A stretch of DNA of 64,000 bases from a bacterium (lineage in GTDB: Bacteria > Sysuimicrobiota > Sysuimicrobiia > Sysuimicrobiales > Kaftiobacteriaceae). The notes below the pieces were generated by a model. That model saw nothing but the letters and a program-made list of their open reading frames with translations, ran no database searches and was not told the origin of the DNA. The position numbers were made by a program, and so were the translations under genes. Shown piece after piece: positions 6,724 to 58,287 of this stretch; position 1 is the stretch's first letter; every line of letters starts with the position of its first letter. The stretch lies in assembly GCA_035292085.1 (NCBI GenBank), contig DATDQT010000152.1, forward strand, positions 17,828 to 81,827, read 5' to 3'.

Positions 6724-6838
6724 TCCCATTCCCTCCTGCATGCGGACTCTGCTATGCTGATTCTTGACCTCTACACAGAACAATTAGATTCTAGGAGCGC
6801 GGAAGAAGGTTGCCCCAACAATCGTTGTTGCCAGCGAC

Positions 6839-7258
6839 ATGCTGACGGCGGCTGACCTGCGACAGCAATTTCAGCGCAGGGGCCTGCGCATCACGCCGCA
6901 GCGGGACCTCATCTTCCGGCTGCTGGAGGGCGCACAGGCCGAGCATCCCTCCGCAGAAGTACTGTACGTGCGGGCCTCGCGGGAAATGCCATCCCTGTCA
7001 CTGAGGACCGTATACGCGATCCTTAAGGAACTTGAGCAGGCCGGCGCGATCAGGCCGCTGGATCTCGGCACGGGCAGCATGCGGTACTGCGCGACACCCA
7101 TGCGGCATCACCACATCGTGTGCACGCAGTGCGGAAAGGTGAAGGACGTCTACGTCGACGTCGAGCCGGTGGAGATTCCCCCCGACCAGCGCCGCGGCTT
7201 TCAAGTCAAGGATCAGGACGTCGTGTTCCGCGCGGTCTGCACGGAGTGCCGGGCCTAG
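6839..7258 (+). CDS. Fur family transcriptional regulator
   Basis: 139 aa; LRITPQR...VY winged helix, HHHIVCTQCGKV and a C-terminal CTEC metal-site motif. Divergent from the iron ABC operon. Confidence 0.85.
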   Translation: MLTAADLRQQFQRRGLRITPQRDLIFRLLEGAQAEHPSAEVLYVRASREMPSLSLRTVYAILKELEQAGAIRPLDLGTGSMRYCATPMRHHHIVCTQCGKVKDVYVDVEPVEIPPDQRRGFQVKDQDVVFRAVCTECRA

Positions 7259-7259
7259 A

Positions 7260-7323
7260 TCCGTTCCAACGCGACAGCCACGTGATGCGGCCATGCAGCC
7301 TCTAGCGGTCGCGTTGGAACGGA
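7260..7323. terminator. Perfect 16-bp inverted repeat (TCCGTTCCAACGCGAC / GTCGCGTTGGAACGGA) with a 32-nt spacer, between convergent genes
   Basis: Read directly: arms at 7260-7275 and 7308-7323. Sits between the fur stop (7258) and the trpB2 stop (7325). No clear U-tract. Confidence 0.5.
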
Positions 7324-7324
7324 C

Positions 7325-8686
7325 CTAGCCCGGCTGAATCCCGGCCAGTTCCTTCATGGCCGCTGCGACCTGCGCCTCCGGATACGTGTAGTCCTCCAGC
7401 TGTCCCGTCAGGTAGGCGTCGTAGGCCCCCAGATCGAAGTGCCCGTGCCCGCTCAGGTTGAAGAGGATCACCCGGGACGTGCCGTCGCGTTTGCACAGCA
7501 GCGCTTCGTCGACGGCCTTGCGGATCGCGTGGGCAGACTCGGGGGCCGCCAGGATGCCTTCCGTTCGGGCGAACTGCATGGCCGCGTCAAACACCGTCCG
7601 CTGGCCATACGCCGCCGCCTCGATGAACCCGTGGTGGTAGAGGAGGCAGACCAGTGGCGCATCGCCGTGGTAGCGAAGCCCACCGGCGTGAATGGCCGGC
7701 GGCACGAAGCCATGTCCCAGCGTGTACATCTTCAGCAGCGGCGTCGTCGCGGCCGTGTCGCCGAAGTCGTAGAGGTAGAGGCCCTTGGTCAGCGTCGGGC
7801 AGGCGTCGGGCTCGACGGCGACGACGCGGACGGGATGGCCCTTGAACTTGTCGGCGAGAAACGGGAAGCTCAAGCCCGACATGTTGCTGCCGCCGCCGAC
7901 GCAGCCGATCACGATGTCCGGGTAGTCCCCGGCCATCTCCATCTGCTGTTTGGCTTCCAGGCCGATGACGGTCTGATGGAGCAGGACGTGGTTGAGGACG
8001 CTGCCCAGTGAGTACTTCGTGTCGTCGTGCGTCGCGGCGTCTTCCACCGCTTCGCTGATCGCCATCCCCAGGCTGCCCGGAGACGTGGGGTCGCGCATGA
8101 GGATCTGTCCGCCGGCGCGCGTACGGTCACTGGGGCTGGGGATCACGTCGGCCCCCCACGTCTGCATCATGACCCTGCGGTACGGTTTCTGCTCGTAACT
8201 CACCTTCACCATGTACACGGTGCACTCCAGGCCGAAGAGTTGGCACGCCAGCGCCAGGGCACTGCCCCACTGCCCGGCCCCGGTTTCCGTCGTCAAGCGG
8301 CGGACGCCGGCCTGTTGGTTGTAAAAGGCCTGGGCCACCGCGGTATTGGGTTTGTGGCTCCCCGCCGGGCTCACGCCCTCGTACTTGTAGTAGATCCGCG
8401 CGGGCGTATCCAGCGCGGCCTCCAGCCGCCTGGCGCGATACAGGGGCGTCGGCCGCCACAACCGGTAGATCTCTCGCACGGGTTCCGGAATGGGGATCTC
8501 TCGCTCCGTGCTGACCTCTTGCAGAATGAGCTCCATTGGAAACAGCGGGGCCAGGTCGTCCGGACCGATCGGCTGCCTGGTGCCCGGATGGATCACCGGC
8601 GCCAGGGGCACCGGCAGGTCGGCCGCGATATTGTACCAGGCCGTGGGGATGCGGGACTCGTCCAACACGTACTTGACGGACTCCAT
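7325..8686 (-). CDS. TrpB2-type tryptophan synthase beta-like PLP enzyme
   Basis: [24 protein letters not shown]...[13 protein letters not shown]...GCVGGGSN motifs. Start at ATG 8686, 7 nt after GAGGAGG. Confidence 0.85.
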
Positions 8687-8783: not shown

Positions 8784-10493
8784 CTACCGGATTCGCAGGG
8801 TCCGCAGCCGGTTGAACGCCGCCGCAATTTCGTGCCGGCGCGGGCGCGCATAGTCACCCGGATGTCCCTGGAACTGCGACAGCACCGCGAGGCCCCGCTC
8901 CGAGACGTCGCCGTCGATCAGGCCGACGATCTCTCGCAGCGACCGGGTCCCATCGACGTACCCTTTCTCCGCGGCGAAGACGATGGCGTCGCCGACGGCC
9001 CGGATCTGGCCTGGTTCAACCAGTTGCTCCGCGCCTGCCAGGTCCAGCACTTCGCGGCCGATGCCGACCGCGCGCTCGCCGCGCGGCTCCGATCTCACGC
9101 GCCGGGTTTTAAATGGGACGACCGACTCTCCGGCCGGGACGCGCTGGGCGATACCTCCGAACCCCTGCGGCCCTGTCCCGCCCGCACCCCTCGCCGCGGC
9201 GGCGGCGTTGGCGGCGGCGGTCAGGTCGACTGGCCGGAACCCGTCCATGCCGATGATCCTGTCTGCCACTCCGGCGAACCCGGCGGCGGCCCCACCGACG
9301 ATGATGGATGAGACGCCGTGCTCGGCGAACAGGGCACGGGCAAGATCCCGCACCGGCACGACCGGATCGTCCGTCTGGGGCATGAGGGCACCGCGAAAGG
9401 GATCGGCGGCGAGCAGGGCCGGCGCGGTGGTATCTTCATCAAACAGCAGCACCGTACTGCCGAGTTCGAGGGCCTCCATCAGTCCGGCCACCTGGGAAAG
9501 CAGGTCCGGCGCATGCTCCGCGCGGTAGCGCCGGACATCTTCCCCACCGGGCAGGCCCCTGATAAACGGCGCGAGCGGCACGGCCTCAACGCGCCGCCCG
9601 CCCTCCCGAACGACCGCGACCGCATCAGGCGCCGTGACACAGTATTCGCGCCCGTCACCGGGCAGATGTGCGTAGACACCGGCGGCGATCGTTCGCAGCA
9701 GGGTTGACCGTCCGGAGAAGGCCGGGCCGGTGATGAGCGTGACCCCGCGTGGAATCCCCAGGCCGGTGACCGGCCCGCGGTGGGGCGCCTCCAGCGTGAC
9801 GCGCAGTTCCGCCGGAGCGTGAAAGGTGACCACGTGCGCGAGCCGGGGCCGGTCCGACGCGGCCTCCCTGGGAAGCATGGCGCCATCGGCGATGAACGCC
9901 ACGAGGCCGCGGGCGGGCAATTGCGCCCGCAGGGCCTCGGCATCTTCGATCACATCGAGGTAGCGCTGGATCACGTCGACGCTGCGGCTGGGATGCTCCG
10001 CCATCAGGGCCATATCGACGATCTGGGGGAGACCGTCCAGCAGCAGCGCCTGCGCGTCTTTCGGCAGTGCCCGCCGGCCTTCCGACGGCAGGATCACGCC
10101 GCCCCGGATCTCGACGAAATCCTCCGCGATGTGGCAGGCCGTCCGCTCGAGGATCTGCTGGTTTCCCGCCTCGATGACATAGCCTGCCGAGCGGCCGCCA
10201 GGGCGCCCGCTGCGGCCGGCCTTCCGCACGGCATCCTGCCAGCGCCGGGCGAGGAAGTCGGCCAGCGCGATCCGCCTGACCGGTGTCGCCCACAGGTCGG
10301 GAGCGAGCCGGACTTCGGCTTGGTCCACGCGGACGCGCATCGGTGACGGCGGCCCGCCGGGATCGGCCTGTATGTAGTCCAGGTACAGCACGAACCGGTC
10401 GAAACGGTATTCGCCTTCCAGCGCCTTGTAGGCGGCGTAGGGTTTGCCTTCAAGCGTGTACAGCTTGTCGCGCAGGCGCTCCCACGGCAACAT
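8784..10493 (-). CDS. Predicted ATPase of the ABC class (ABC_ATPase / COG3044-like), function unknown
   Basis: 569 aa. N-terminus LEGKPYAAYKALEGEYRFDRFVLYLDYIQADP and a P-loop-like GPAFSGRSTLL recalled from this family. Not verified by search. Confidence 0.65.
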   Translation of the reverse strand: MLPWERLRDKLYTLEGKPYAAYKALEGEYRFDRFVLYLDYIQADPGGPPSPMRVRVDQAEVRLAPDLWATPVRRIALADFLARRWQDAVRKAGRSGRPGGRSAGYVIEAGNQQILERTACHIAEDFVEIRGGVILPSEGRRALPKDAQALLLDGLPQIVDMALMAEHPSRSVDVIQRYLDVIEDAEALRAQLPARGLVAFIADGAMLPREAASDRPRLAHVVTFHAPAELRVTLEAPHRGPVTGLGIPRGVTLITGPAFSGRSTLLRTIAAGVYAHLPGDGREYCVTAPDAVAVVREGGRRVEAVPLAPFIRGLPGGEDVRRYRAEHAPDLLSQVAGLMEALELGSTVLLFDEDTTAPALLAADPFRGALMPQTDDPVVPVRDLARALFAEHGVSSIIVGGAAAGFAGVADRIIGMDGFRPVDLTAAANAAAAARGAGGTGPQGFGGIAQRVPAGESVVPFKTRRVRSEPRGERAVGIGREVLDLAGAEQLVEPGQIRAVGDAIVFAAEKGYVDGTRSLREIVGLIDGDVSERGLAVLSQFQGHPGDYARPRRHEIAAAFNRLRTLRIR

Positions 10494-11764: not shown

Positions 11765-12967
11765 TTACCGTTTCCTGTTTCCCATGTCCGGGAACAGCAA
11801 CCGTTGTCCGAGGAGGGCATAGAACTGGGCGGCGGTCAGGACTTCATCGAGGTCGACGAACTCATCGGTCGTGTGGGCCGCTTCCGGATCACCGGGCCCG
11901 AACAGCACGGTGGGGATGTCGCGCTCGGCGAAGAATCGGCCGTCGCTGGCTTGATGGTATCCAACCACGGCGGGGTCCAGTCCCAACGACGAGGCGATGT
12001 CTTGCCCGGCCGTGACCACGAGCGCCGTCACCGGGGTCTCGATGGGCGGCCCCATCTGCAGCACTTCGACGTCAGCCTCCAGCGCAGGGTCGGCCTGTGA
12101 GAGGTCGGCGATGAGCCGCTCGATTTCCGCGACGGCGTCGGGCACGCTCTCGTTGGGCAGCGTCCGGCGGTCGATCGTCGCTTCGCACCAATCGGCCACG
12201 ATGTTGGTGGCGATCCCGCCGCGGATCGTCCCCACGCTGATCGACGGCCGCGGGGTCAGGGGGTGGGACAGTCGTTCCAGACGTGTCCCGATCTCGCGCT
12301 GGATTGCCAGGAGCACCGTGGCCATGTGGCCGATGGCGTTGTTGCCCTCCCACGGCGTGCTCCCGTGCGCCGCGCGCCCGTGCGTGACAATCCGCACCCA
12401 GAGCACACCTTTCTCGGCCACGGCCAGCCGGTTCGACGTGATCTCACCGACGACCACGTGGTCCGGCCGTACCAGGCCCCGGTCGACGAGGTATTCCGTC
12501 CCCTTGATGCCTCCGACCTCTTCGTCACTGACGGCCGTCAGCGTGAGGGTGCCGCGCAGGGGCAGGACGCTGGTCAAGGTCTCGAGCGCCGCGACCATGG
12601 CAGCCAGCGATGCCTTCGCATCCGCGGAGCCCCGGCCGTACAGGCGCGTCCCGCTGATCTCGGCGCCGAACGGATCCCGCCGCCATGCCGCCCGGTCCCC
12701 CGCCGGGACGGTGTCCATGTGTGTCGTAAACAGGACCTCCGGCCTGCCCGTCCCGATCCGCGCCATGACGTTCGGCTTGCGGGGCTCGTCGGCCAGAATC
12801 TGGAAGTCGATGCTGGCCTCACGCAGCCGCGCGGCCACGAGGTCGGCAACTTTACGGGTATCGCCGGGGGGGTTGGAACTCTCGGCGCGGACCAGCGCCG
12901 CGAGAAACCCGATGATGTCGGCGCGCCGTTTCTCGATTTGCTCAACCAGCGACTGGGTCACCATCAC
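11765..12967 (-). CDS. M20 family metallopeptidase (ArgE/DapE/ACY1-like)
   Basis: HMDTVPAG...GRGSADAKAS...SDEEVGG motifs of the M20 family. Confidence 0.8.
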   Translation of the reverse strand: MMVTQSLVEQIEKRRADIIGFLAALVRAESSNPPGDTRKVADLVAARLREASIDFQILADEPRKPNVMARIGTGRPEVLFTTHMDTVPAGDRAAWRRDPFGAEISGTRLYGRGSADAKASLAAMVAALETLTSVLPLRGTLTLTAVSDEEVGGIKGTEYLVDRGLVRPDHVVVGEITSNRLAVAEKGVLWVRIVTHGRAAHGSTPWEGNNAIGHMATVLLAIQREIGTRLERLSHPLTPRPSISVGTIRGGIATNIVADWCEATIDRRTLPNESVPDAVAEIERLIADLSQADPALEADVEVLQMGPPIETPVTALVVTAGQDIASSLGLDPAVVGYHQASDGRFFAERDIPTVLFGPGDPEAAHTTDEFVDLDEVLTAAQFYALLGQRLLFPDMGNRKR

Positions 12968-14680: not shown

Positions 14681-15409
14681 TCAGAACGCAGGCCGGAATG
14701 GGAACAGTCTGAGAATCCACGCGTTGAGTTGAAAGACGAGATCGAGCATCAGCGCCGCGCCCATCACGACCAGGAACACGCCGCTGACCGTCTCCACGAT
14801 CCGGCCGTACCGGCGGATCCAGGCGAACCCGTCAAATGCCGTCGTGATGAGCACGGCGGTCATCAGGAATGGCACACCGAGCCCCAGCGAATAGGCGAGC
14901 AGGAGTCCCGCCCCGCTGAACGCGTTCTGCGTCGTCGCGGCGAGCGTCAGGATCGCGGCCAGGACCGGACCCACGCAGGGTGTCCAGGCGAAACCGAAGG
15001 CCATGCCGATCGGGAACGCCCCAAGCGGACCACCAGGACGTCGCTCGAGGTGCAGCCGACGCGTGCGGGACAGACCCGGCACCTTGATGATGCCCAGCAC
15101 GGACAGCCCCAGGAGAATGACCAGCACGCCGCCGATGCGGGACAGCAGCTGGCGATTCGTCAGAATAAACGAGCCCAGCACGGTCGCCGAGGCGCCCAGC
15201 GCCGTGAAGATCGAGGCGAAGCCCAGGACGAACACGACGGTCGTCCCCACGATCCTGCTCAGATGCTGCCGCCGTGCCGCCGGATCCATGTCGGCCAGCG
15301 AGAGTCCGGAGACGAAGGAAATGTATCCGGGGACCAGGGGGACGATGCAGGGCGACAGGAAGCCCAGGATCCCCGCGGCAAACGCAATGGCAAAGTTTAC
15401 TTGCGGCAT
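14681..15409 (-). CDS. ccdA: Cytochrome c biogenesis / thiol-disulfide electron transporter CcdA (DsbD family)
   Basis: FLSPCIVPLVPGY and WTPCVGPVL, the two conserved Cys-containing TM motifs of CcdA. Start at ATG 15409. Confidence 0.85.
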   Translation of the reverse strand: MPQVNFAIAFAAGILGFLSPCIVPLVPGYISFVSGLSLADMDPAARRQHLSRIVGTTVVFVLGFASIFTALGASATVLGSFILTNRQLLSRIGGVLVILLGLSVLGIIKVPGLSRTRRLHLERRPGGPLGAFPIGMAFGFAWTPCVGPVLAAILTLAATTQNAFSGAGLLLAYSLGLGVPFLMTAVLITTAFDGFAWIRRYGRIVETVSGVFLVVMGAALMLDLVFQLNAWILRLFPFRPAF

Positions 15410-15463
15410 CGAACCCTCGTGGCAGCGCGCCATGTACCCGAGTGCAGCGAGTGGTACATGGGG

Positions 15464-15952
15464 CTACCGGCCGGTCAGCATCTTGATGGTCGACACGAGT
15501 TCCCGTTCACCCGTCGGTCCGAACGCCGCGCGCAGGAGCCTGCCCTGGCGATCGATGACCGCCCAGAACGGCTGGTGCGTGAAGCCGTAGAGCTTCGCCA
15601 CGCGGCCGTCACCGTCGTAGCCGTTGGGAAACGTCAGGCCGTGTTTCGTGACAAACGCGGCGCTGGCGTCCCGGCTGTCGAGCAGCCCGATCCCCACGAA
15701 CTCGATGCCCTTGCCCTTCCAGTCTCTGTAGGTCCGCTCCCACACGGGGGCGTCGCGGTTGCACGTCACTCACCACGGGGCCCAGAACAGCAGGAGCACG
15801 GCGTTCTTCCCGCGCTGGTCCGCCAGGCGGAACGTCTGTCCGTTGAACAGCTGCAGTTCGAACACCGGCGCCGGGTTGGGCGCGGGGGCGGCCTGCGTGG
15901 CCGCGGCAGCCGCCACGACCATCGCGATTGTCACCAGCGTCAGGACGCGCAT
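15464..15952 (-). CDS. TlpA/ResA-like periplasmic thioredoxin-fold thiol:disulfide oxidoreductase, probable selenoprotein (in-frame TGA at 15770-15772 in place of the first Cys of WCxxC)
   Basis: Track ORFs 15770..16210 and 15464..15769 are adjacent and in the same frame. The joined product has a signal peptide MRVLTLVTIAMVVAAAAATQA. The rest reads ...AVLLLFWAPW-[TGA]-VTCNRDAPVWERTYRDWKGKGIEFVGIGLLDS...FPNGYDGDG...FWAVIDRQG, collinear with TlpA/ResA. Confidence 0.7.
15734..15758 (-). promoter_or_regulatory. Candidate bacterial SECIS-like hairpin 11 nt downstream of the in-frame UGA
   Basis: RNA CCGC-GACG-CCC-CCGUGU-GGG-A-GCGG: 4 bp plus 3 bp with an internal loop and GU in the apical loop. 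Hand-folded only. Confidence 0.35.
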
Positions 15953-15990
15953 GGTCGACACCAGTACACACCACGATTGTAAAGGAATGT

Positions 15991-16776
15991 TTACGGCCGC
16001 GTCACGCGCCGAATCCGCACCGCCATCCCGGCGGCGGCGGCAAAGCGGCGCGCGGCGCTCCCTTCGCGCACCGCGATCTCCAGCAGGCCGTCGCTTCCGC
16101 CGACGACCGCGAGGCGGTTCGGGCTGACTTCTCCATAGGTCCGGGCGCTCCGCCCGCTGCCCCGCCGGGCGCCAACCTGGATCGCGACCGGCCCTCGGTG
16201 TTCCACCCACAGACCGTTGGGCACGTTGGTCACCAGGTTGCCGAACGGATCAACATAGATGACCTGTCCCGCCACACCGCCGTTTATCGTCCGGCCGGAG
16301 CCGAAGTCGAGATCGACGAACTCCGCAGTTGCTAACGCGATGGCCTCCGGCGGTGTTCCCTCGAGCAGCAGCGCCGCCGCCGGCGCAAAGATGTCGCGCC
16401 CGTGGAAGGTGCTCGAGACGCCGGGGCGGAGAATCATTGGATCCGTCATCGTATGGACCGTCGGGCTTCCAAGGCGGCGGGCGGCAGGCATGAGCAGCCC
16501 ATTGTCCGGCCCCACGAACAACTGGCCGCCGGAGACGACGACCAGCGGCTTCCGCTCAGTCCCAACCCCCGGATCGACCACGGCGAGATGCACCGTCCCG
16601 GCGGGAAAGTGCGGCACCGCCGAATAGAGGACGAACGCCCCTGCCCTGATGTCGTGGCGGGGGACGTCGTGGGAGATATCGACCAGCGTAGGACTGGTCC
16701 GGCGCACCAGGACGGCCTTCATCGCCGCCGGGTACGGGCTCGAGGGCCCGAAGTCGCTGAGCAGCGTCACAATCAT
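15991..16776 (-). CDS. SAM hydroxide adenosyltransferase / DUF62 (chlorinase-fluorinase fold) family protein
   Basis: MIVTLLSDFG...YPAAMKAV...VDISHDV...VVDPGVG motifs characteristic of DUF62. Confidence 0.8.
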   Translation of the reverse strand: MIVTLLSDFGPSSPYPAAMKAVLVRRTSPTLVDISHDVPRHDIRAGAFVLYSAVPHFPAGTVHLAVVDPGVGTERKPLVVVSGGQLFVGPDNGLLMPAARRLGSPTVHTMTDPMILRPGVSSTFHGRDIFAPAAALLLEGTPPEAIALATAEFVDLDFGSGRTINGGVAGQVIYVDPFGNLVTNVPNGLWVEHRGPVAIQVGARRGSGRSARTYGEVSPNRLAVVGGSDGLLEIAVREGSAARRFAAAAGMAVRIRRVTRP

Positions 16777-53496: not shown

Positions 53497-53540
53497 AGTT
53501 GAGTGAGTCGTGTGAGTTGAGTGAGTCGAGTGAGTTGTTC
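53497..53540. repeat. 14-bp direct repeat AGTTGAGTGAGTCG at 53497 and 53515 (18-bp period) plus a further GAGTGAGTTG; inverse orientation to the 53409-53442 cluster
   Basis: Read directly from the sequence. Confidence 0.8.
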
Positions 53541-57903: not shown

Positions 57904-58287
57904 ATGGCCTCGAAGAGTCTGTACGTTGGCAATCTGCCTCATGACACCACCGAGCAGGAACTGCGGCAGCTGTTTGAAGCCTGGGGTCCGGTCGCCGAGA
58001 CCCGCCTGATCGCCGGACGCGGCTTCGGCTTCGTGGAGGTTCCTGATGAGAAAGCCGCCGACGCGATCGCCGCGATGAACGGAAAAGACCACAAGGGGCG
58101 TGCGCTGGTCGTGAACGAAGCGCGGCCGCGGACACCGCAGCGGTCCGGCGGTGGGTACGGTCGCGATAGAGACTATGGGGACCGCGGCGGCTACGGGCGC
58201 GACAGCGGACCCGGCGGACGCGGCGGCTACGGTGGGCGCGGGGGAAAGCGCACCGGGGGCGGCCGTGGCGGGCGCGGGCATCGCTGA
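57904..58287 (+). CDS. RRM-type RNA-binding protein with Gly/Arg-rich tail
   Basis: RNP2 LYVGNL and RNP1 RGFGFVEV. RGG/GYG repeats at the C-terminus. GAGAGGAG lies 6 nt before the ATG. Confidence 0.85.
   Translation: MASKSLYVGNLPHDTTEQELRQLFEAWGPVAETRLIAGRGFGFVEVPDEKAADAIAAMNGKDHKGRALVVNEARPRTPQRSGGGYGRDRDYGDRGGYGRDSGPGGRGGYGGRGGKRTGGGRGGRGHR

Follow-up and report, generated by a model that had tools for sequence, protein, structure and literature searches.

The minus-strand segment at positions 15464−15952 of the 64 kb stretch of DNA analysed here (the window) most probably constitutes a single gene for a ResA/TlpA-type reductase, predicted to be exported, whose attacking residue is selenocysteine within a U61-V-T-C64 motif. 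We estimate the probability of this reading at roughly 0.86. The frame runs from an ATG at 15952 to a TAG at 15464−15466 and is broken solely by a TGA at 15770−15772 (FWAPW-TGA-VTC). This TGA, the proposed selenocysteine codon, specifies residue 61, the first Cys position of a CxxC motif, and the TGC codon at 15761−15763 specifies Cys64, the resolving cysteine of the resulting UxxC. Translated from the ATG, the joined product reads MRVLTLVTIAMVVAAAAATQAAPAPNPAPVFELQLFNGQTFRLADQRGKNAVLLLFWAPW-TGA-VTCNRDAPVWERTY...LTGR and comprises 162 amino acids plus the stop codon. The original prediction held that two minus-strand open reading frames, 15770−16210 and 15464−15769, are contiguous, in the same frame and parted by the TGA at 15770−15772 alone, and re-reading of the frame bears this out. 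The N-terminal segment MRVLTLVTIAMVVAAAAATQA (15890−15952, minus strand) is a predicted export signal with probable cleavage between ATQA and AP, as judged by eye; inspection of all orthologues likewise shows a hydrophobic N-terminus with A-x-A-type sites behind it. A sigma-70-like promoter match, GTGACG-18-TACAAT (15976−16005, minus strand), lies 24 nt upstream of the ATG. It is a consensus match only, with one site found against 0.2 expected in shuffled sequences.

With U read as C, the joined product yielded one Pfam AhpC-TSA/Redoxin domain at residues 26−138, spanning the TGA (PF00578, 70.8 bits; PF08534, 60 bits). Phmmer aligned residues 25−149 with ResA (1st9, 2e-17) and with 3kcm (9e-19), collinearly across the TGA. 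In both cases the codon is matched to the first CxxC cysteine (FWGTWCEPC in ResA and FWATWCPPC in 3kcm), exactly where it had been placed beforehand, and Pro128 aligns with the ResA loop proline (cis-Pro loop, HQP with PLP). As a structure model we used the Cys orthologue P0002, which is 63% identical and has an AlphaFold pLDDT of 88.9. Its active-site Cys is positioned between a strand (53−58) and a helix (63−82). The predicted structure superposes on Bacillus subtilis ResA with an rmsd of 1.5 Å, and its top Foldseek matches are ResA structures (TM 0.88−0.93). The joined product is thus a single thioredoxin-fold domain of the ResA/TlpA type; Pfam Redoxin/AhpC-TSA matches, the ResA alignment and the Cys-orthologue model all agree with the TlpA/ResA-like oxidoreductase first proposed.

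The division made by the gene callers could conceivably be genuine, with a secreted peptide of 60 residues and a distinct protein of 101 residues started at the GTG that directly follows the TGA in the window. Databases do list a 101-aa product (P0001 and P0016, 'TlpA disulfide reductase family protein'). In most orthologues, however, the codon after the TGA is ACG, CCC, CCA, ATC, GCG or similar, which is no start, and callers begin further downstream in such orthologues, giving 89−93-aa fragments. The split would also cut the thioredoxin fold at its active site and leave a C-terminal part without the first β-strands, the signal peptide or the nucleophile. We consider two products hardly credible, and continue with the single selenocysteine-containing reductase.

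ResA and the TlpA/CcmG/DsbE group are extracytoplasmic reductases that are reduced by CcdA or DsbD. The window protein shares with B. subtilis ResA (1st9, 1su9) and with this group the same fold, an active site at the N-terminus of helix 1, the aligned cis-Pro loop, an N-terminal export/anchor segment (predicted here) and a ccdA neighbour. It differs from ResA in that Sec would replace the nucleophilic Cys and in that no ccsA/ccsB gene is found nearby. Assignment to ResA proper was rejected, with a score of 83.6 bits against a cut-off of 170 for NCBIfam NF002854 and no accompanying WWD-motif CcsA/ResC gene. Nor is the protein a member of NF041054, the ResA-like WAxxUGC selenoproteins: it scores 66.5 bits where the cut-off is 300. 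The NF041054 selenoproteins likewise resemble ResA/TlpA and carry Sec in the WAxx-U region, but the model has 354 positions compared with the 162 amino acids of the window protein, and it carries a UGC motif instead of U-x-x-C (here U-V-T-C).

Two UxxC selenoprotein families, 'Prx-like thiol:disulfide oxidoreductase' and 'Redoxin family protein', are catalogued in Table 1 of PMC13188914, and a Prx-like selenoprotein family is described in PMC1088965. The window gene resembles the catalogued families in its Pfam domains (PF00578/PF08534), in the UxxC motif with Sec for the first Cys, in its widespread Cys homologues and in the Sec/Cys-pair logic by which it is predicted. The correspondence is one of domain and motif description, and the clade may be one of these families, whose representatives are WP_010940744.1, HEU0032618.1 and MGB1650493.1, or a separate Cys-to-Sec conversion. 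The window clade has distinguishing traits: it comes from MAGs labelled Armatimonadota, Sysuimicrobiota (CSP1-3) or 'bacterium', it is often accompanied by ccdA and it has its own invariant hairpin. The earlier statement that thioredoxin-like Sec/Cys selenoproteins are already known is correct, and because UxxC redoxin and TlpA-like selenoproteins have been catalogued, the window gene is a new, systematically mis-annotated example of a known sort.

GTDB species genomes were scanned for relatives with a protein pattern in an unbiased manner; this yielded 23 TGA loci, six Cys loci (TGC or TGT) and one partial locus, with 45−81% identity. The TGA column is informative in 29 species-level genomes, with TGA in 23/29 and TGC or TGT in 6/29, so that the comparison of orthologues suggested at the outset returned Sec/Cys pairs. 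TGA is present at 77 metagenome sites as well. The window allele itself was assembled independently in four JGI metagenome samples, with TGA, hairpin and both coding halves identical. The peptide upstream of the TGA is conserved while synonymous sites vary, and purifying selection acts on the protein sequence of each half. Neither the window gene nor any of the 28 genome orthologues whose frame is intact departs from Cys64: among 22 TGA forms analysed its codon is TGC in 19 and TGT in three, and Cys is also found in locus L033 and in 6/6 Cys forms. L031, a frameshifted locus, retains Cys64, which lies upstream of its own frameshift. The closest relative of the window gene, L005 (77% identity), has the same arrangement.

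These data bear directly on whether the gene is simply dead, as a pseudogene, or the TGA an assembly or sequencing error for a true TGC or TGT. Either would account for the splitting by gene callers, and a few relatives do appear damaged, L031 being frameshifted inside the hairpin and L062 and L078 looking broken. Yet the same TGA recurs in four assemblies made independently and also in 23 species-level genomes whose frames are intact on both sides (L031 being frameshifted), synonymous changes have piled up around an invariant TGA, and a dead gene would not hold 45−81% protein identity in both halves. A pseudogene or error is accordingly very improbable, and the initial view that the TGA is no chance nonsense hit stands, both flanks being conserved as protein. 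We therefore retain selenocysteine as the meaning of the codon.

The proposed bacterial SECIS core is an 18-nt hairpin, CGCCCCC-GUGU-GGGAGCG (15735−15752, minus strand), with an apical loop G-K-G-U at 15742−15745, 24 nt past the UGA. Numbered from the U of UGA, the stem pairs are G22-C37, C23-G36, C25-G34, C26-G33 and C27-G32, with C24 and A35 mismatched; an alternative register has a CGKGU loop and a bulged A35. The element is invariant across the TGA forms, the frameshifted L031 being broken within it. Three stem codons, +7 GCC (Ala), +8 CCC (Pro) and +11 GAG (Glu), are each present in 22/22 sequences with zero synonymous variation, whereas the other conserved degenerate codon columns all vary (approximately 47 columns in total, of which the three frozen ones lie in the hairpin stem). 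Pro is mostly encoded by CCG elsewhere in the gene, as opposed to CCC in the stem. The hairpin has been lost in 5/6 Cys forms. Two of these (L021 and L027) keep the peptide A-P-G-W-E-R with the codons GCG CCG or GCA CCG, which break the hairpin, and in the other three (L022, L023 and L030) AP has become AA. The sixth, L029, is a Cys form with the hairpin still present, next to the Sec form L025. The hairpin at 15735−15752 is under constraint at the RNA level.

The significance of the hairpin comes from the comparison of homologues only, as the single-sequence fold is no better than chance. It is short, with 5−6 pairs and one mismatch, and in its minimal form folds at −9.6 kcal/mol. A 61-nt segment gave z = +0.4 relative to shuffled sequences, which is not above chance, and a loose bSECIS-like hairpin filter was passed after 57% of arbitrary codons in window genes; for these two reasons thermodynamics was dropped as evidence. 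There is no covariation in the stem, nor could there be, since the stem never varies. Rfam yielded no SECIS or relevant family in the window at the gathering threshold or at 15600−15850 in a permissive scan, where the sole match, Hammerhead_II (E=8), was dismissed as chance.

In the bSECIS model, an apical loop of 3−9 nt lies 16−37 nt after the UGA on a stem of at least 4 bp, and a G within the first two loop positions precedes a G or U (PMC13188914). The window hairpin shows this geometry, with G then G/U in the loop, no fewer than 4 stem pairs and a spacing of 24 nt, although geometry alone is non-specific. It is presumably akin to the SECIS element of Escherichia coli fdhF. Features in common with fdhF-type elements and the bSECISearch consensus are a stem-loop in the coding region just past the UGA, a small loop with G then G/U, one unpaired or mismatched stem base and a loop at 24 nt, within the 16−37 range; the sequence (CGCCCCC-GKGU-GGGAGCG) differs, the stem is short and there is no Rfam match. 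The larger hairpin drawn in the original prediction survives in part: its inner portion exists and is conserved in homologues, but the lower stem CCGC/GCGG is not kept in them. Its suggested likeness to bSECIS elements is supported by geometry and by the frozen synonymous sites in homologues, while the single-sequence hairpin carries no weight alone.

A second gene with these features was found in nine related loci, where a nearby rhodanese gene scores 100.6 bits with NF041203, 'rhodanese_LYCAU (seleno)protein'. The TGA of this gene takes the place of the catalytic Cys codon, and the hairpin after it, GCGCC-CGKGU-GGCGC, has the same CGKGU apical sequence as the TlpA-like gene at nearly the same distance from the TGA. 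The rhodanese was the only other gene in the related loci to have an in-frame TGA with a two-sided coding signal; the window has no further such TGAs, and a search for CCGKGTGG after an in-frame TGA revealed no additional family in all DNA examined. The apical CCGKGUGG common to the TlpA-like and LYCAU genes suggests a putative lineage-specific SelB recognition motif. In the TGA-carrying genomes, fdhA would be a likely further selenoprotein gene. Term searches for WAxxUGC and LYCAU found no relevant literature.

It had been noted that no Sec machinery is visible in the window, and our searches concur, with no tRNA, Rfam match or SelA, SelB or SelD homologue in the 64 kb. The same holds for the flanks of related loci, approximately 0.4 Mb from 30 genome loci and 0.44 Mb from 76 metagenome loci (approx. 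0.85 Mb in total), in which ARAGORN detected no tRNA-Sec and tblastn with the E. coli proteins gave no convincing match to SelA, SelB or SelD. A SelA candidate in L020 proved to be a weak SelA-like PLP enzyme (23% identity), and a match in L022 was a generic GTPase. This absence counts against the selenoprotein reading, although it is expected if the machinery is unlinked, and the Sec trait of the source genome is a putative one. The curated selenoprotein family NF041203, with a TGA of its own in nine related loci, speaks indirectly for such machinery.

The lack of Sec machinery in the window and in approximately 0.85 Mb of related flanks would also suit read-through of the UGA without selenocysteine, through near-cognate insertion of Trp, Cys or Arg or through a suppressor tRNA peculiar to the lineage, while the hairpin would serve as a general stimulator. 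In other systems, read-through can be promoted by hairpins downstream of the stop. Against such read-through here, recoding affects the catalytic Cys of two redox families that are unrelated, the TlpA-like proteins and the LYCAU rhodanese, the latter a curated selenoprotein family; the loop obeys the G(G/U) rule with a spacing as in bSECIS elements; and Trp or Arg as the nucleophile would inactivate the enzyme. TGA is moreover an ordinary stop that terminates 22 of the 50 likely genes in the window, which rules out global UGA reassignment too. We regard read-through of this kind as unlikely. A different possibility is that the lineage uses Sec but the source organism has lost the machinery, in which case the gene is a relic that gives a truncated peptide only. 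The family does include switches from Sec to Cys as well as losses, as the pair of L029 and L025 illustrates, but a gene deprived of its decoding machinery should decay quickly, whereas the TGA, the hairpin and both coding halves of the window gene are intact and identical in four samples and L005 keeps the same arrangement at 77% identity. A relic therefore seems improbable as well, and a functional selenoprotein gene remains our preferred reading.

The adjacency to ccdA was confirmed: a gene for a DsbD_TM family membrane electron transporter (14681−15433, minus strand; Pfam DsbD_TM, 4e-18) follows on the same strand, and the two conserved Cys motifs, LSPCIVPL and WTPCVGPV, can be read in its translation. 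In 16 related loci, too, ccdA is the gene immediately after the orthologue; these comprise two re-assemblies of the window allele (L002 and L003) and 14 genome loci (L005, L006, L013, L014, L021−L027, L029, L030 and L033). It is missing from the flanks of a second subgroup (L007−L012, L015−L020 and L028). Sequence and gene order suggest that the oxidoreductase is probably reduced by CcdA. A WWD-motif gene of the ccsA/ccsB (resB/resC) type was found neither in the window nor in the related loci, which leaves a role in cytochrome c maturation without support.

We envisage that a SelB-type elongation factor carrying Sec-tRNA(Sec) would bind the hairpin at 15735−15752 and deliver selenocysteine at the UGA at 15770−15772 in place of termination. 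The protein would then be exported by means of its N-terminal signal peptide, and the U61 selenolate could attack disulfides of extracytoplasmic client proteins, forming a mixed selenenylsulfide intermediate that Cys64 would resolve. The resulting Se-S bond would be re-reduced by membrane CcdA, with electrons presumably coming from cytoplasmic thioredoxin.

That automatic calling splits the gene, as first suspected, is evident from public entries, which are widely truncated. Among 76 matching database clusters, 65 are C-terminal fragments of 89−101 aa with neither signal peptide nor catalytic residue, some of them named 'TlpA disulfide reductase family protein' or 'peroxiredoxin'. Corrected annotation gives back a complete enzyme, predicted to be exported, and points to selenium dependence in a lineage of soils and hot springs that is widespread and uncultivated. 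As far as searched, the two published CSP1-3/Sysuimicrobiota genome analyses and their supplements make no mention of selenium. The gene would add a CcdA-coupled, probably extracytoplasmic selenoenzyme to those known, while the general picture is unchanged, UxxC thioredoxin-fold selenoproteins having been known since 2004−2008. The Sec and Cys orthologues, which encode the same peptide with different codons, also provide a natural experiment on RNA-level selection acting on a coding-region SECIS.

More speculatively, the Sec form could be both ancestral and dominant in a CcdA-linked extracytoplasmic reductase across Sysuimicrobiota (CSP1-3) and relatives, with the SECIS apical motif CC-CGKGU-GG, common to this gene and the LYCAU rhodanese, being read by a co-evolved SelB. 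We advance this only tentatively and think it rather doubtful; if true, it would establish a small redox module of the envelope that depends on selenium, along with a new class of bSECIS sequence. The Sysuimicrobiota (CSP1-3) lineage in question is one of soil and the subsurface.

The minus-strand frame running from ATG 15952 to TAG 15464 has a sole interruption, TGA 15770-15772. A mechanical ORF list gives it as two pieces on the minus strand and in a common frame, 15770..16210 and 15464..15769, contiguous across the TGA just as the original prediction had described. Read through, the product is 162 residues long, contains LLLFWAPW-TGA-VTCNRDAPVWERTY and has a hydrophobic N-terminus that reads as signal-like. 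With Cys in place of the stop, Pfam AhpC-TSA/Redoxin covers residues 26-138 as a single domain, and the TGA therefore lies inside one domain. TGA is an ordinary stop in the window, terminating 22 of the 50 likely genes (ccdA among them), and no other TGA there lies between two stretches with coding signal. A sigma-70-like promoter match (GTGACG-18-TACAAT) is present at 15976-16005 on the minus strand, directly 5′ of the ATG and within the 3′ end of a SAM hydroxide adenosyltransferase gene.

A search of the joined product against a collection of 5.8 billion proteins yielded 76 matches, 65 of which are fragments of 89-101 residues starting at or just past the TGA position (for example MTCN... 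and VWER...), which bears out the predicted splitting of the gene by automatic annotation. Six full-length close relatives read FWAPWCPTCN at the active site. Four JGI metagenome samples independently yielded assemblies of the exact window allele, TGA included. We also scanned one genome per GTDB species at the DNA level with LYGFTYQP and LTFPNGYD, two peptide patterns taken from the C-terminal half and blind to both the TGA and the hairpin. Inspection of the active-site column in the resulting 30 loci revealed TGA in 23, TGC or TGT in six (L021, L022, L023, L027, L029 and L030) and one partial locus. In all 23 the TGA occupies exactly the column of the first Cys, and the frame 5′ of it is open in every TGA locus, including a signal-like N-terminus and a conserved segment, A-P-x-F-x-L-x-L-F-x-G-x-T-x-x-L-A-x-x-K-G-x-x-V-x-L-L-F-W-A-x-W. 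The upstream codons vary synonymously while the peptide is kept, the mark that translation past the TGA leaves at the level of sequence. Three related loci are irregular: in L031 (443-836), one of the 23, an extra G within the hairpin loop (CCCCCGGGGTGGGAG) shifts the frame, and in L062 and L078 the sequence diverges or breaks soon after the active site. Misassembly, chimerism or true pseudogenization could explain these cases.

Taken from this sequence alone, the hairpin downstream of the TGA is not more than chance: shuffled versions of the 61-nt segment fold equally well (z = +0.4), 57% of arbitrary codons in the window (67% G+C) are followed by a hairpin that passes as bacterial-SECIS-like under a loose definition, and no Rfam model matched. 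The decisive evidence is comparative. All TGA forms share an invariant stretch, GCCCCCGKGTGGGAGCG, from nt +22 to +38 counted from the U of UGA, where RNAalifold predicts a hairpin of five pairs, each the same in 22 of 22 sequences; a stem this uniform offers no covariation to score. In the window this element lies at 15735-15752 on the minus strand, with the loop G-K-G-U (K, G or U) at 15742-15745, and the minimal hairpin has a folding energy of −9.6 to −10.1 kcal/mol. Of the hairpin drawn in the original prediction, this part is present and invariant in the TGA forms, whereas the lower stem CCGC/GCGG is not conserved. The bacterial SECIS model calls for a stem of 4 bp or more, a UGA-to-loop distance of 16-37 nt and a loop of 3-9 nt in which a G within the first two positions precedes G or U (PMC13188914); the geometry here fits, with a spacing of 24 nt.

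Constraint on the stem is evident at synonymous sites. Among approximately 47 codon columns with a conserved, degenerate amino acid, only three show zero synonymous variation, and all are stem codons: +7 Ala GCC, +8 Pro CCC and +11 Glu GAG, each in 22/22 sequences. Elsewhere in the same genes Pro columns are mostly CCG, and the remaining Ala and Glu columns are mixed. Among the Cys forms, by contrast, L021 and L027 retain the peptide A-P-G-W-E-R with codons GCG CCG and GCA CCG, while L022, L023 and L030 have Ala-Ala, encoded GCC GCC or GCG GCG; the matching segments of these five adopt weak, different folds (−2.5 to −6.2 kcal/mol). Only L029 (8842-8920, TGC) keeps the hairpin sequence GCCCCCGGGTGGGAGCG; it is most closely related to the Sec form L025, consistent with Sec having recently given way to Cys and the SECIS persisting as a relic.

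Neighbour-joining recovered the Sec forms as a paraphyletic group and the Cys forms as one clade plus L029. This topology implies two or more Sec/Cys switches and suggests, from these sequences, an older origin for Sec than for Cys in this clade. The taxonomic labels on the genome loci are Armatimonadota, ‘bacterium’, Chloroflexota and Candidatus Fervidifonticultor, the last assigned by NCBI to phylum Candidatus Sysuimicrobiota (CSP1-3). An exact-pattern scan of JGI metagenomes (TGA-N6-TGY-N9-GCCCCCGKGTGGGAGC), a set selected for the hairpin and used for breadth only, located the pattern at 77 sites on 76 contigs. The source data sets are soil, sediment and hot-spring, and all sites belong to the Sec oxidoreductase family, with 63 distinct C-terminal protein sequences when the first 60 residues are compared. 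One related locus, L047, carries tandem paralogues approximately 540 nt apart (9783-9819 and 10325-10361, plus strand), both with TGA and hairpin and with His for Trp before Sec (WANH-U-PVC and WAAH-U-PTC). The MAG DATGHZ01 (SMAG_U9794) likewise has two divergent TGA paralogues, L025 and L032, with motifs U-PTC and U-AMC and approximately 45-59% identity to the window protein; ccdA follows only L025.

A scan of every related locus for in-frame TGAs flanked 5′ and 3′ by coding signal brought up a rhodanese-domain gene (...[LIV]-x-[YF]-C-[TA]-TGA-x-x-E-A-T-S-A-R-V-A...). It is present in nine loci, each with the TlpA-like TGA gene as well, at a distance of 1.5-7 kb; it is not present in the window. 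Its copies, 44 to 97% identical, lie at L050:611-919, L093:726-1034, L099:10984-11292, L112:2040-2321, L065:4342-4623, L092:2837-3118 and L012:7712-8008 on the plus strand and at L010:6648-6941 and L011:12688-12858 on the minus strand, and the stop at the catalytic Cys is TGA in 9/9. NCBIfam NF041203 (‘rhodanese_LYCAU, rhodanese-related (seleno)protein’), a CxU selenoprotein family (PMC13188914), scored 100.6 bits, slightly below its cut-off of 115. The rhodanese TGA is followed by a hairpin, GCGCC-CGKGU-GGCGC, with the loop G at +26, and the apical CC-CGKGU-GG is common to both hairpins when the TlpA-like one is read in an alternative register with A35 (from the U of UGA) bulged. Since two unrelated redox genes share a conserved TGA at the catalytic Cys, like loops and near-equal spacing, the parallel provides strong indirect evidence, at the sequence level, that the lineage decodes UGA as Sec.

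As originally noted, selA, selB, selC and selD are absent from the window; none was found in approximately 0.85 Mb of flanks from related loci either. In one of these loci, L020, the ORF at 6819-8399 (plus strand), 2 kb 5′ of the Sec gene, is weakly similar to E. coli SelA (23% identity over 287 aa, E = 8e-5) in a stretch without the SelA N-terminal region, and is probably a SelA-family PLP enzyme, not selenocysteine synthase. The Sec reading of the TGA at the nucleophilic Cys draws support from the Sec/Cys pairing, the conserved flanks and the constrained hairpin, and we put the probability that residue 61 is selenocysteine at roughly 0.86.

The predicted collinearity with TlpA/ResA was borne out: the closest solved structures by sequence, a Geobacter metallireducens thioredoxin-family protein (3kcm, E = 9e-19) and B. 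subtilis ResA (1st9, E = 2e-17), align over residues 25-149 with the TGA opposite the first active-site Cys of each. An AlphaFold model of P0002, a Cys orthologue 63% identical to the window product, places this Cys between strand 53-58 and helix 63-82 (pLDDT 88.9), and its best Foldseek matches are ResA structures (target-normalised TM 0.88-0.93, rmsd approximately 1.5 Å). Among NCBIfam models the ResA subfamily ranked first, yet below cut-off (83.6 versus 170), and the ResA-like WAxxUGC selenoprotein model fell far short (66.5 versus 300). Thus, while alignment and fold are shared with B. subtilis ResA, the protein scores below the ResA cut-off, and no CcsA/ResC WWD-motif gene was found in the window or any related locus. 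The product would work like a TlpA/ResA-type reductase, judging from alignment and model, and is not demonstrably a ResA of cytochrome c maturation.

The next gene downstream is indeed ccdA (DsbD_TM/CcdA membrane protein, 14681-15433, minus strand), with both conserved Cys motifs; it lies directly 3′ of the Sec gene or Cys orthologue in the window and 16 related loci, Sec and Cys forms alike. A second subgroup (L007-L012, L015-L020 and L028) lacks ccdA and has a two-component system downstream instead, suggesting a different envelope redox context; in its representative L009 (10517-14536, plus strand) a response regulator, a histidine kinase and a small secreted protein are followed by a molybdoenzyme-like gene, which by eye resembles the membrane-anchored sulfite-oxidase family.

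The proposed mechanism builds on what was observed: a single gene with a single ResA-like domain, a Sec/Cys pair at the nucleophile, a constrained hairpin and an adjacent ccdA. SelB with Sec-tRNA(Sec) would bind the hairpin and insert Sec at UGA 15770-15772, and the signal peptide would export the protein. The U61 selenolate would then attack disulfides of client proteins, C64 would resolve the intermediate, and CcdA would re-reduce the Se-S bond with cytoplasmic thioredoxin. With selenium or the machinery in short supply, translation would end at the UGA and leave a 60-residue peptide.

Among the catalogued UxxC thioredoxin-fold selenoproteins are the ‘Prx-like’ family, whose UxxC motif is thioredoxin-like (PMC1088965), and, in Table 1 of PMC13188914, a Prx-like thiol:disulfide oxidoreductase (PF00578), a thiol:disulfide interchange protein, a Redoxin family protein (PF08534, UxxC) and a UGC-containing TlpA family protein. 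The window gene, placed by domain and motif alone, belongs to the same class, and is a new, or at least un-annotated, representative of it. It is of interest in that public databases mis-annotate it almost universally, Sec and Cys orthologues differ cleanly in their synonymous codons, it is putatively coupled to CcdA, and its SECIS apical motif recurs in a rhodanese selenoprotein, in a phylum (CSP1-3) for which two genome papers, as far as searched, make no mention of selenium.

Two genes downstream of ccdA, an M20 peptidase (11765-12967, minus strand) best matches the ArgE/DapE family (259.6 bits), with sub-threshold scores to the ‘YgeY family selenium metabolism-linked hydrolase’ models (200 and 166 bits versus cut-offs of 321); we did not take it as evidence of a selenium link. 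Tandem repeats occur at 53497-53537 (18-nt unit, 2.3 copies, intergenic) and 58148-58232 (36-nt unit, 2.4 copies).
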